A DNA stretch of 64,000 nt from a virus (lineage: Duplodnaviria; Caudoviricetes), in IMG/VR virus record IMGVR_UViG_3300033463_000011, positions 128,001-192,000 of that record; one strand, 5' to 3'. This document shows, piece by piece, positions 26,308 through 29,275 of the stretch. Within the stretch, counting starts at the first letter, position 1; each line of letters opens with the position of its first letter. A program made the position numbers and the translations under genes. A model generated the notes under the pieces. That model had not been told where the DNA came from. It did no database searches and saw nothing but the letters and a program-made list of their open reading frames with translations.

Positions 26308-27801
26308 ATGGCTAAAAAAGCTACAGTAACATCAGCTATCGAAGAGCCTAAGAATACATCTTCTGTGCTCGGAACATTTACTGGTAAGTGTTGCGATGCA
26401 GCTGTGTTCAACAATAACTCAATGAAGCTTAATAGGGAGTTATTTGAGAAGTTACTTGATTCTGATGAATACAAGGACGCAATAGAGCATAGATATTATA
26501 TCGGATTTTTAGGTCACCCAGAAGATCCCGGTTGCCAAAATTTCAAAGATGCATGTATTGTAATGACATCTATGGAAATAACTTCTGATGATGAAATACT
26601 CGGCACATTTGACTTAGTAGATACTCCTGTAGGTAGGATTGTTAAGTCATTTATCGATGCAGGTGTTGAATGGGGAATTTCAATCAGAGGCGCAGGCGAT
26701 GTAGATAGTGAAGGTAATGTAGATCCTGATACATTCGTATTTAGAGGTTTCGACTTAGTTGCATTTCCTGCTTACGGTGACGCAGTTCCTGAATTCCAGC
26801 AAGTTGCAGCTTCATCTAACCTTGATGACCAAGTTAAGTTTAAGCGAGTTTGTGCTGCAATTGAAAAGAACATTAAAGAAGTTACTAGCCTTAATTCTAT
26901 TGAAGCTATGCAGGAACAGTTTAATCCTGATTCAGACCAATATAAGAAGCTTGAAGCAAGGAAAGAAGATATTGGTGTAGGTACTGAAGATGAGTGCCCT
27001 GAATGTTCTGATGAAGATAAACAGGAAATACTCGCTAAGAAACTTCAAGCAGTAACAAATCTTTACATTGAAGAACACAATAAAAATAAAGAACTCGAAT
27101 CTGCTTTAGCATCAACTCAATTACAATATGATAGAGAAATACAGAGCATCAAGAGAATAAAAGCAAGTCAAGATAAGTTAATGCAATCCAAGTTGGAAAC
27201 TATTAAAGCATCAAATCAAAAATTATTAAAATCTAATCACGGATTAGTGCTCGCTAACAAGCAGTTATCTAACGATTTAGAAACATTAGAAGCGGAAAAT
27301 TCTCAAATAGCTAAAGAATTAAACGCATCTAATAAAAATAACCTTATTTATAAACAGAAGATAGAGAGTTCCTCTACTGATATCCAAACTAAAGATACGC
27401 AGATTGCTGAATTGCGTGAAAAGCTTAACAAGACTGTTGTTGCAAGTACAAACGCAAGGAAAGAAGCATCAAACCGTGGTGAGCAACTGGAAAGCCTTAA
27501 GGAAGAGATATCAGCTTCTAATCAAGAGCTTGATGAAATGTTAACACGAATTCAAGCGATGGAAGAAACGATTCATGAATATCAGCAAGCATACGCTAAT
27601 ATTTATGCAAACGCAATAGGAATTCAAGCATCTGGTTTATCTGTTACTGCATCAACTTCTGTTAGCGATTTGGAAAACTTAATCAAATGCGCAACGAATA
27701 CATCAAATATCGGAGCAATGCCGTCGTTCAGTGAAGAAGACGAAGAAGCATTTCTTCCATCCGATGTAACTAACAGTGGAAACGATTTAGCAGTACTTTA
27801 A
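26308..27801 (+). CDS. Prohead protease (T4 gp21-like) fused to a coiled-coil scaffold
   Basis: GFLGHP, TPVGRIV, GISIRGAG, FDLVAFP motifs; long coiled coil; directly upstream of the capsid gene. Confidence 0.85.
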   Translation: MAKKATVTSAIEEPKNTSSVLGTFTGKCCDAAVFNNNSMKLNRELFEKLLDSDEYKDAIEHRYYIGFLGHPEDPGCQNFKDACIVMTSMEITSDDEILGTFDLVDTPVGRIVKSFIDAGVEWGISIRGAGDVDSEGNVDPDTFVFRGFDLVAFPAYGDAVPEFQQVAASSNLDDQVKFKRVCAAIEKNIKEVTSLNSIEAMQEQFNPDSDQYKKLEARKEDIGVGTEDECPECSDEDKQEILAKKLQAVTNLYIEEHNKNKELESALASTQLQYDREIQSIKRIKASQDKLMQSKLETIKASNQKLLKSNHGLVLANKQLSNDLETLEAENSQIAKELNASNKNNLIYKQKIESSSTDIQTKDTQIAELREKLNKTVVASTNARKEASNRGEQLESLKEEISASNQELDEMLTRIQAMEETIHEYQQAYANIYANAIGIQASGLSVTASTSVSDLENLIKCATNTSNIGAMPSFSEEDEEAFLPSDVTNSGNDLAVL

Positions 27802-27835
27802 TTATTTTAAAGATATTAAACATTAGGAGACTAAC

Positions 27836-29275
27836 ATGGCTATTAAAAAGACAACTCGTAGAGTTACCCCTACTAGCATTACAGCTGCAAGAAGTCTTAA
27901 TAGACCCGCAAGAATTGGTTATTCCGCACCTCGCAGCATCAATGCAGGCACATCAATCACATCTGCTTCTCGCAGATCCGCAAGACCTGTAAGCAGAACA
28001 GCTTCTTCTGTAGAGCTTACACAGCAGCAGAGAGTTTTCTGCAATCAGCTCATTGCAAACACACGTAAGCTTGCTCCTGTTATGGCAGCAACAAACACAT
28101 CAAACATCATGGCTAAGCCTGAGTTCACAGAGCTCCTTCCTCTCTTCGTACAGAAGTTGCTCGTTCTCGATGTATTTGGTTCAGTAGCAATGAATTCTCG
28201 TCAGCAGATCATTCCTTACTTCAAGTTCATCGCAGAGAACACAAAGGGTGAGACAGCTGCAGGTACAATCCTCTCTTCTGCTTTCGTAAACAGACAGGGA
28301 ATGGATCCGAACTTCACAGGTCGTGTAATTAAGAATGAGGCAGTTGCTAACAGCACACTCGTTTATACACCTATCCTTCCTGGTTCAGTTTCTATCTCCG
28401 ATGGTACTAATGTATACATCGACGATGGTGCTGGTAACCTCATTAAGAAGTCTGATTCTTCTAGCGCAGGTACAATCAATTATGCTACTGGTGCAATTGG
28501 CACACTTGTAGGAACACTTTCTGCTTCTTATGAGTATGACAACGAGACAGTAGGTCCTGACCAGAATGGTCAGTATGGTGCTAAGATGGCTAAGGGCTAT
28601 CTCCAGCTCGATGAGATCAACATGGTAGCAGAAGCACACGAGATCGCTTGCTACTGGTCAATCTATTCTGCATTCGCAGCTCAGCAGGAGTACGGTGCAA
28701 ACATCGGCGAGATTTCTAAGGAAGCTGCTTTCTCTGAACTCACAGCAGAAATCAACAGCGCTTGCTTCAACGAACTCGCTCAGGCAGCTACATACAATCC
28801 TCAGTTCAACTGGGATGCATCTCTTGCATTCAACGGTGCTGTAATGCCTTCTGATTTCCTTAACCTCTTCAAGTTCAAGCTTGACGATGCAGCTAACGCA
28901 GTATACCAGGCAACAAACCTCACAAGACCTAACAGACTCATTGTTGGTACAAAGGTTGCTTCTCTCATTTCCAGACTTCCTGGTTTCTCTTCTGGTGCAC
29001 CTGAGGAAACAGTTGGACCTTACAAGCTCGGTACACTTGATCAGTATGTTATCTACGTAGATCCTTACTATGATCCGAATACTTGGGTAATGTGCGCTAA
29101 GAGCAACGACATTAGACGTAACTCTGCACTTTACGGCGAATATATGCCTATGGTAAAGACAGACGATATCGGTCTTGCTAACGCTAGTGTACAATCCGGT
29201 TTTGCAACTATGTACGCAACCAAGATCGTCAATCCGGCAACAATTATTTCCGGTAAGGTTCTCGGCGCATTCTAA
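27836..29275 (+). CDS. Major capsid protein, T4 gp23-like
   Basis: gp23-like motifs (VFGSVAM...YFKF; W...AAQQEYG; ELTAEIN; GTLD.Y.IYVDPY; YGEYMP) and strongly biased codon usage. Confidence 0.9.
   Translation: MAIKKTTRRVTPTSITAARSLNRPARIGYSAPRSINAGTSITSASRRSARPVSRTASSVELTQQQRVFCNQLIANTRKLAPVMAATNTSNIMAKPEFTELLPLFVQKLLVLDVFGSVAMNSRQQIIPYFKFIAENTKGETAAGTILSSAFVNRQGMDPNFTGRVIKNEAVANSTLVYTPILPGSVSISDGTNVYIDDGAGNLIKKSDSSSAGTINYATGAIGTLVGTLSASYEYDNETVGPDQNGQYGAKMAKGYLQLDEINMVAEAHEIACYWSIYSAFAAQQEYGANIGEISKEAAFSELTAEINSACFNELAQAATYNPQFNWDASLAFNGAVMPSDFLNLFKFKLDDAANAVYQATNLTRPNRLIVGTKVASLISRLPGFSSGAPEETVGPYKLGTLDQYVIYVDPYYDPNTWVMCAKSNDIRRNSALYGEYMPMVKTDDIGLANASVQSGFATMYATKIVNPATIISGKVLGAF

Follow-up and report, generated by a model that had tools for sequence, protein, structure and literature searches.

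A T4-type prohead protease fused to its scaffold in a clade of uncultured phages appears to cut after small residues instead of glutamate

We analyzed 64,000 nt of an uncultured phage, bases 128001-192000 of the IMG/VR record IMGVR_UViG_3300033463_000011 (200,233 bp; complete according to CheckV). This whole stretch is called the window below; all coordinates are positions in it, and protein residues are counted within each open reading frame (ORF). The subject is a pair of neighboring genes of the head module, one for a prohead protease fused to a scaffold and one for the major capsid protein, which starts 35 nt downstream of the first; both are on the + strand. Known or predicted cleavage is marked by an arrow, with P1 directly before the bond, P3 two residues before P1, and P1' directly after the bond. 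The genes, the protease domain and its catalytic residues are as follows:

26308..27801, + strand: protease-scaffold fusion gene, 497 aa (ORF call, with PF03420 and PHROG 207 matches)
26365..26802, + strand: S77-type protease domain, residues 20-165 (AlphaFold model with a predicted local distance difference test score, pLDDT, of 92; best PDB match T4 gp21, 5JBL)
26515-26517, + strand: catalytic His70, aligned with T4 H85
26680-26682, + strand: catalytic Ser125, aligned with T4 S140
26752-26754, + strand: invariant Asp149, aligned with T4 D168
27836..29275, + strand: major capsid protein gene, Gp23 family, 479 aa (PF07068)

The 497-aa protein combines, in one chain, a serine prohead protease of the T4 gp21 type (S77) with its own coiled-coil scaffold. 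Residues 28-135 match PF03420 (Peptidase_S77; E 7.5e-5, 22.7 bits, gathering cut-off 27), a precomputed match to the same family is present in most of the close homologues, and the ORF matches PHROG 207, 'head maturation protease', with an E of 8e-19. The scaffold part, residues ~170 to 497, is helical and coiled-coil-like, and the more than 1200 homologues of the fusion, mostly 450-640 aa long, are alike in architecture. The 479-aa ORF, matched by PF07068 with 64.5 bits against a cut-off of 24.4, is by this match a Gp23-family capsid protein, from which a propeptide would be removed. Metagenomic homologues of the gene pair number in the hundreds and lie on contigs of ~200 kb; megablast of the locus against cultured phages gave no match, and the best tblastn match among cultured phages has 29% identity.

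A sequence search against the PDB was uninformative, with no match for the capsid protein and only coiled-coil noise for the protease, and a fold search was therefore used instead. We built an AlphaFold model of residues 1-200 from 131 sequences (mean pLDDT 92). Its top Foldseek matches in the PDB are the three chains of T4 gp21 5JBL (E 1e-6, template modeling (TM) score 0.65 on the target, root-mean-square deviation 2.3 Å over 141 columns), followed by the proteases of human cytomegalovirus (HCMV), Kaposi sarcoma herpesvirus (KSHV), pseudorabies virus (PrV), Epstein-Barr virus (EBV), herpes simplex virus (HSV) and varicella-zoster virus (VZV), with TM scores of about 0.35-0.5. Across the 131 sequences, S125 is invariant and H70 nearly invariant; the T4 H85A/S140A mutant of gp21 is catalytically dead (bioRxiv 10.64898/2026.03.04.709575). 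By sequence position, an invariant Asp149, and no second His, stands 24 residues past Ser125. The first-pass annotation had already read the locus as a protease with a scaffold half next to a capsid protein, and the PF03420, PHROG 207, PF07068 and 5JBL matches bear this out.

In the literature that we searched, every characterized T4-family (S77) prohead protease, i.e., those of T4, phiKZ, 201phi2-1 and SPN3US, cuts after glutamate (PMC5694885, PMC9026906, PMC10052503). The 497-aa protein is instead studded with a motif that has a small residue at P1. The first-pass annotation had listed such strings in the scaffold, and all of them are present (VAAS at 166, IKAS at 284 and 299, LNAS at 338, IESS at 352, VVAS at 377, ISAS at 401, IQAS at 439, VTAS at 446, IKCA at 459); two sites, VTS↓A 7-10 and VCA↓A 181-184, had been overlooked, and two of the listed ones, LNAS 338 and IQAS 439, turned out not to be conserved. 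Conservation was assessed in 120 homologues with 55-100% identity, and the counts below refer to this set:

26326..26337, + strand: candidate N-terminal self-cleavage site VTS↓A, residues 7-10 (position 7 I/V in 120/120, position 9 S/A in 118/120)
26803..26814, + strand: release-type site VAA↓S at the end of the protease domain, residues 166-169 (kept in 120/120)
26848..26859, + strand: site VCA↓A, residues 181-184 (kept in 100/120)
27157..27168, + strand: scaffold site IKA↓S, residues 284-287 (kept in 119/120; family consensus ITA↓SQ)
27202..27213, + strand: scaffold site IKA↓S, residues 299-302 (kept in 97/120)
27319..27330, + strand: LNAS, residues 338-341, a motif match that is not conserved (19/120)
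27361..27372, + strand: scaffold site IES↓S, residues 352-355 (kept in 112/120)
27436..27447, + strand: scaffold site VVA↓S, residues 377-380 (kept in 118/120)
27508..27519, + strand: scaffold site ISA↓S, residues 401-404 (kept in 110/120)
27622..27633, + strand: IQAS, residues 439-442, a motif match that is not conserved (20/120)
27643..27654, + strand: scaffold site VTA↓S, residues 446-449 (kept in 116/120)
27682..27693, + strand: maturation-type site IKC↓A, residues 459-462 (kept in 119/120; family consensus IQG↓A)
27691..27729, + strand: scaffold-tail copy of the capsid N-arm, ATNTSNIGAMPSF, residues 462-474 (similarity to capsid residues 82-99)

The enrichment of the motif was estimated with 5000 composition-preserving shuffles of scaffold residues 161-497 and of capsid residues 1-90. 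In the scaffold, [ILV]xAS occurs 8 times compared to 0.66 expected, a number that none of the 5000 shuffles reached, and [ILV]xA[SAG] occurs 9 times compared to 1.4 expected. The glutamate motifs are at chance, with 9 observed versus 8.6 expected for [ILVM]xE and 7 versus 8.8 for [SAG]xE. The same test applied to T4 gp22, a scaffold with a known cleavage motif that served as a positive control, gave 16 occurrences of [IL]xE compared to 5.75 expected (0/5000 shuffles), with the alanine motif at chance. The density of [ILV]xAS in the 497-aa protein is 1.6 per 100 aa, compared to a background of 0.15 over all 77 ORFs of the window. Nine of the 11 scaffold sites hold the motif in 81-100% of the homologues; LNAS 338 is possibly lineage-specific or a chance match. 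Conservation is higher in the P3, P1 and P1' columns (0.92) than over the remaining scaffold (0.78), and 2 of 10000 random site sets reach this value. The logo pooled from 14 conserved sites has I (62%) and V (32%) at P3, A (66%), S (16%), G (11%) and C (3%) at P1, and S (53%), A (30%) and G (7%) at P1'.

Two of these sites have putative counterparts in T4 gp21. The N-terminal VTS↓A corresponds to LLIE9↓T of T4 gp21 and to VLIE↓T of a sister clade described below, the segment in the clade of the window being [IV]-K-[SA]9↓. Counted from the conserved A-x-P, VAA168↓S shares its register with ITE187-S188 of T4. The predicted cut at IKC461↓A would free a 36-aa acidic C-terminal tail.

The capsid protein carries the motif as well, and the strings named in the first-pass annotation (ITAA at 15, INAG at 35, ITSA at 41 and VMAA at 82, followed by ATNTSNI) are all present. 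For conservation we used a set of 118 capsid homologues:

27836..28087, + strand: predicted capsid propeptide, residues 1-84 (Arg-rich over the first ~60 residues, then a conserved helix, 63-78)
27878-27889, + strand: propeptide site ITA↓A (conserved in 118 homologues)
27938-27949, + strand: propeptide site INA↓G (conserved in 118 homologues)
27956-27967, + strand: propeptide site ITS↓A (conserved in 118 homologues)
28079..28090, + strand: predicted maturation site VMA↓A, residues 82-85 (P3 I in 63 and V in 55, P1 G in 64 and A in 54, P1' A in 118/118)
28088..28126, + strand: start of the predicted mature capsid protein, ATNTSNIMAKPEF, residues 85-97 (invariant columns in 118 homologues)

In capsid residues 1-90, [ILV]xA[SAG] was found 3 times versus 0.62 expected (p about 0.016 in the shuffle test), and all four propeptide sites are conserved islands within an otherwise variable Arg-rich leader. 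The consensus of the final site is [IV][MT][GA]↓ATNT[NS]NI.A[RK]P[DE]F, in which A, T, N, T, N, I, A, P and F are invariant. In an AlphaFold model of the capsid protein, residues 1-60 have a pLDDT below 40 and residues 63-78 form a helix. T4 gp23 and the sister clade have propeptide helices that align with this one, which places the predicted cut, as in T4, after the helix and before the N-arm. Judging from the consensus and from the homologous site of the sister clade (below), the mature capsid protein most likely starts at A85.

The first 13 residues of this predicted mature protein have a copy in the scaffold tail: the tail and capsid residues 82-99 are identical at 11 of 18 positions (E 5e-6), and the copy is conserved across the 120 homologues of the fusion. 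Two roles are conceivable: the copy could extend what the protease recognizes at the two key cuts, or it could mimic the N-arm and sit in its docking site in the prohead. Neither the sister clade nor T4 gp23 has the N-terminal extension of the capsid protein, which is ~55 aa long, Arg-rich and free of acidic residues (window 27836-28000). The scaffold tail and two upstream ORFs (23724-24116 and 24119-25237) are strongly acidic, and this composition suggests that they pair by charge with the Arg-rich extension.

The sister clade carries Glu at the equivalent motif positions of the scaffold, the capsid maturation site and the protease N-terminus. We searched the protease domain alone against 1.8 billion cluster representatives and counted, in the C-terminal extensions of the matches, the dipeptides that follow a hydrophobic residue and one spacer, using representatives of clusters at 50% identity. 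In the 78 representatives nearest to the window (at least 46% identity), hereafter the small-P1 clade, the top dipeptide is AS, with 299 occurrences versus 53 expected (z = 34; [ILVM]-x-A-S). In the 53 representatives of the sister clade (34-45% identity), the top dipeptide is ES, with 360 versus 61 expected (z = 38; [ILVM]-x-E-S, the T4 rule). Tails of the two types separate cleanly protein by protein. The two clades share the fused architecture (about 500-640 aa), protease domains that are 30-45% identical, and the capsid N-arm ATN..NI. They differ in that the sister clade has [ILVM]-x-E↓[SA] throughout, including V-x-E↓[SA] near the equivalent of IKC↓A, keeps the T4-type residues discussed below, and has no copy of ATNTSNI in its scaffold tails. 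In the capsid proteins of the sister clade, 16/16 loci show Glu at P1 of this site ([LIMT]-x-E↓A), directly followed by ATN/ASN-x-x-NIPSK in 15/16, whereas the small-P1 clade has G or A at P1 of the homologous site in 118/118. The start at ATNTSNI proposed in the first-pass annotation thus coincides exactly with the T4-type LxE↓ATN site of the sister clade, and the hydrophobic P3 and small P1 that it had proposed likewise gain support from this comparison. Besides IMG/VR jumbo-phage contigs, the sister clade includes two cultured phages with Glu-type fusions, Bacillus phage vB_BceM-HSE3 (gp062, 559 aa) and Streptococcus phage vB_SagM-GXN1.

In a maximum-likelihood tree of 49 protease domains, all small-P1 sequences lie on one side of a branch with support of 100/99 and a long stem, a Glu-type sequence is the sister of this group (97/87), and T4 lies outside. 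This topology implies that the small-P1 state was derived once; the clade, as delimited by its predicted sites, is a single, well-supported, derived group. A deep branch of it, P0374 (504 aa), has a tail with mostly [ILV]-x-S↓[SA] and a Glu right after the catalytic Ser, and may represent a third flavor of specificity. Small-P1 and Glu-type phages were found in the same IMG/VR samples, 3300031998, 3300028832 and 3300028591 (loci L006/L033/L034, L009/L024 and L011/L029/L031/L032), which indicates that both protease rules coexist in one habitat. In one sister-clade locus (L016, IMGVR_UViG_3300045988_153522, 4823-4982), the capsid gene is split into ORFs 3950-4846 and 5274-5795, and the gap has a sub-threshold match to a group I intron (RF00028, 27.8 bits, E 6e-5).

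Six alignment positions were compared at which T4 gp21 has the same residue as the Glu-type clade, in contrast to the small-P1 clade:

T4 R52: N/L/K/E/A in the small-P1 clade
T4 R55: M/L in the small-P1 clade
T4 Y57: L/I in the small-P1 clade
T4 E82: F/Y in the small-P1 clade
T4 R88, three residues after the catalytic His: P in the small-P1 clade
T4 S141, adjoining the catalytic Ser: I/V in the small-P1 clade

Judged by their position, these residues would form the S1 pocket, and the loss of three arginines is what would be expected if a pocket that binds Glu had turned small and apolar. The departure from the S77 family appears to lie in specificity, not in fold or catalysis.

The likeness to T4 gp21/gp22/gp23 extends beyond the fold and the aligned catalytic His and Ser: the protease gene adjoins a Gp23-family capsid gene, the scaffold contains multiple copies of a short motif with a hydrophobic P3, which also closes the capsid propeptide, downstream of a helix conserved in it, and motif sites lie near both ends of the protease domain. 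The differences from T4 are the P1 residue, Glu in T4 versus a predicted Ala/Ser/Gly/Cys here, with R52, R55, Y57, E82, R88 and S141 replaced; the fusion, since protease and scaffold are two genes in T4 and one polypeptide here; and the extra Arg-rich extension of the capsid protein. Among the giant-phage enzymes phiKZ gp175, 201phi2-1 gp268 and SPN3US gp245, P3 drifts (S/A/G-x-E, A-x-E) and C-terminal autoprocessing is common (PMC5694885, PMC10052503); these enzymes keep Glu at P1, whereas the clade of the window appears to have changed P1 itself.

The predicted rule is also, as the first-pass annotation had not noted, that of the herpesvirus protease assemblin (MEROPS S21; UL26 of HSV and PrV, UL80 of HCMV). 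In PrV, the release site is YLQA-T and the maturation site VQA-S, and the maturation cut removes a capsid-binding tail (PMC4498786) of 37 residues (PMC4498786, PMC8537868); substrates for the HCMV enzyme are based on ...N-A↓S-S (PMC13486704). Assemblin and the window protein share the V/L/I-x-A↓S rule, a protease fused N-terminally to the scaffold, a related fold (with the herpesvirus proteases ranking after gp21), and the layout of a release site and a near-C-terminal site that removes a short tail, 36 aa as predicted here and 37 aa in PrV; the clade conserves the predicted assemblin-type sites VAA168↓S, VTA448↓S and IKC461↓A. They differ in that the window protein is nested among Glu-type S77 fusions of phages, with weaker structural similarity to assemblin; in that herpesviruses have a Ser-His-His triad, whereas an invariant Asp149 probably stands here where the second His would be expected; and in that, by prediction, the capsid protein is cut here as well and the scaffold is cut many times. 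A nested scaffold gene, like herpes UL26.5 or lambda Nu3, was considered and rejected, as no in-frame ATG with a Shine-Dalgarno-like sequence upstream was found. The tree, the stronger similarity to gp21 and Asp149 together indicate that the herpesvirus resemblance is convergence within a shared fold, not membership: the change of P1 from Glu to a small residue is a single derived event in the clade, converging on the assemblin rule and on its release/maturation layout.

The same motif may extend to other proteins of the phage. About 24 ORFs of the window start with MKIY[A/C/G/S], mostly paralogues of 100-130 aa (8568-17305, 20089-20439, 34215-37250 and others), and larger ORFs carry longer leaders of the MKRY...[IV]x[AS] type (MKRYVRNKVYA↓G at 25412, MKRYIKA↓V at 35149, MKRYIKS↓S at 45472, MKVYVKS↓A at 39089). 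These putative leaders fit the rule of I/V at P3 and a small P1, and resemble the capsid-targeting leaders of T4 that end in Glu. Counts of the short leader's sister-clade equivalents (MKxYE) equaled those of a reversed-pattern control and were uninformative.

Altogether, the whole clade, and not just the one phage considered in the first-pass annotation, appears, from the comparisons above, to cut after a small residue, Ile/Val-x-Ala↓Ser, instead of Glu, and we infer cleavage at the predicted bonds. The protease would join the prohead as part of the scaffold and, once inside, would cut after Ala > Ser > Gly > Cys, two positions past Ile/Val and before Ser/Ala. Its own N-terminal nonapeptide would be trimmed at VTS9↓A, and the protease would be freed from the scaffold at VAA168↓S; cuts at seven or more sites would chop the scaffold into fragments of roughly 15-100 residues, and the 36-aa acidic tail would be severed at IKC461↓A. 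The Arg-rich capsid propeptide would be fragmented at residues 17, 37 and 43, and the mature capsid protein would be freed at VMA84↓ATNTSNI. We consider this full account, i.e., a fused S77 protease, cuts after small residues, a single derived switch and convergence with herpesviruses, to be highly probable.

Some observations weigh against it. Cleavage in the small-P1 clade is predicted from sequence comparisons; with 22.7 bits, the window protein scores under the curated Pfam cut-off for S77 (27 bits); and the AlphaFold model of the capsid protein, with a pLDDT of 63, is of low quality and shows no boundary at residue 85. The motif is low in information, and the folded part of the capsid protein contains 8 matches to [ILVM]x[AGSC][SAG] as well, so that accessibility must contribute to the choice of sites. 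In addition, the switch from Glu to a small residue is a single event, and the co-varying residues are statistically inseparable from hitch-hiking changes; their covariation is therefore suggestive. If the motif were conserved for a reason other than proteolysis, such as coiled-coil packing, binding or modification, with cleavage elsewhere or hardly any, one could point to the shortness of the motif, to the abundance of Ala and Ser in coiled coils and to the recurrence of hydrophobic residues at the heptad period. However, the motif is also found outside coiled coils, in the disordered capsid propeptide, at the protease N-terminus and in the first five residues of ~24 other proteins, and the corresponding places in T4 and the sister clade hold the cleavage motif established by experiment, with Glu for Ala, two residues that are not interchangeable in core packing. 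We regard this explanation as unlikely.

It is very unlikely, in turn, that a different enzyme makes the cuts, be it a signal-peptidase-like host protease with a small residue at -1 and an aliphatic one at -3, or another phage protease. Signal peptidase follows a -3,-1 rule, and I/V at -3 with A/G/S at -1 recall it; the substrates, however, are internal head proteins and have no hydrophobic signal segment, and signal-peptidase-like cleavage was ruled out for lack of such segments. The type of motif tracks the protease clade and the residues adjacent to the active site one to one. An S78 or ClpP-type protease was not found in the 200-kb genome by a profile search that also missed its S77 domain (PF03420) and is thus insensitive for divergent domains. 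Still less credible is that the protease keeps the Glu P1 of T4 and phiKZ, the IxA-S strings being incidental and the capsid protein being cut at SVE60↓L or at another Glu. This would agree with all characterized S77 proteases (PMC5694885, PMC9026906), and the first Glu of the window capsid protein, in SVE60, does close the acid-free Arg-rich stretch. Yet E60 is not conserved (Q in 72, K in 22, N in 9 and R in 7 of 118), which rules out a cut at SVE60↓L, and there is no conserved Glu between the propeptide helix and the N-arm. Moreover, the glutamate motifs of the scaffold are at chance, the scaffold is unlike the Glu-type scaffold of the sister clade, and residues common to the Glu-specific enzymes, three Arg among them, are replaced.

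Starting from cleavage after small residues by the fused S77 protease, a wider proposal can be made, which we hold to be somewhat probable: a large uncultured clade of ~200-kb phages, comprising at least about 80 clusters at 50% identity, re-tuned a T4-type protease to a small P1; at least 14 scaffold and capsid sites, together with the short MKIY[A/C/G/S] leaders of dozens of proteins that are putatively packaged into the head, co-evolved with it; the assemblin rule of herpesviruses was re-invented independently; and the scaffold tail copies the capsid N-arm. Bacterial immune sensors can be triggered when gp21 cuts an I/LxE loop (bioRxiv 10.64898/2026.03.04.709575), and a switch of P1 could thus evade protease-sensing defenses, or stay orthogonal to co-occurring Glu-type phages. 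Sister clades that differ at P1, with T4 R52, R55, Y57, E82, R88 and S141 as candidate specificity residues, are a system for studying how this fold reads its substrates, and the pair allows one to ask how a protease and dozens of substrates switch their rule together. The herpesvirus rule (V/L/I-x-A↓S, with release and maturation sites and a fused scaffold) can arise within the diversity of tailed phages, which bears on how much of the herpesvirus/phage resemblance is inherited and how much convergent. In practice, the rule predicts mature N-termini and head-packaged proteins in an abundant uncultured group.

Other genes of the window include two that are homing-endonuclease-like (29478-31364 and 31509-33317; PHROG 3339, 12131 and 559), directly downstream of the capsid gene, the former with a methyltransferase-like C-terminal part. 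A transposase-like ORF (43831-45096; PHROG 506, E 4e-39) also lies within the phage genome.

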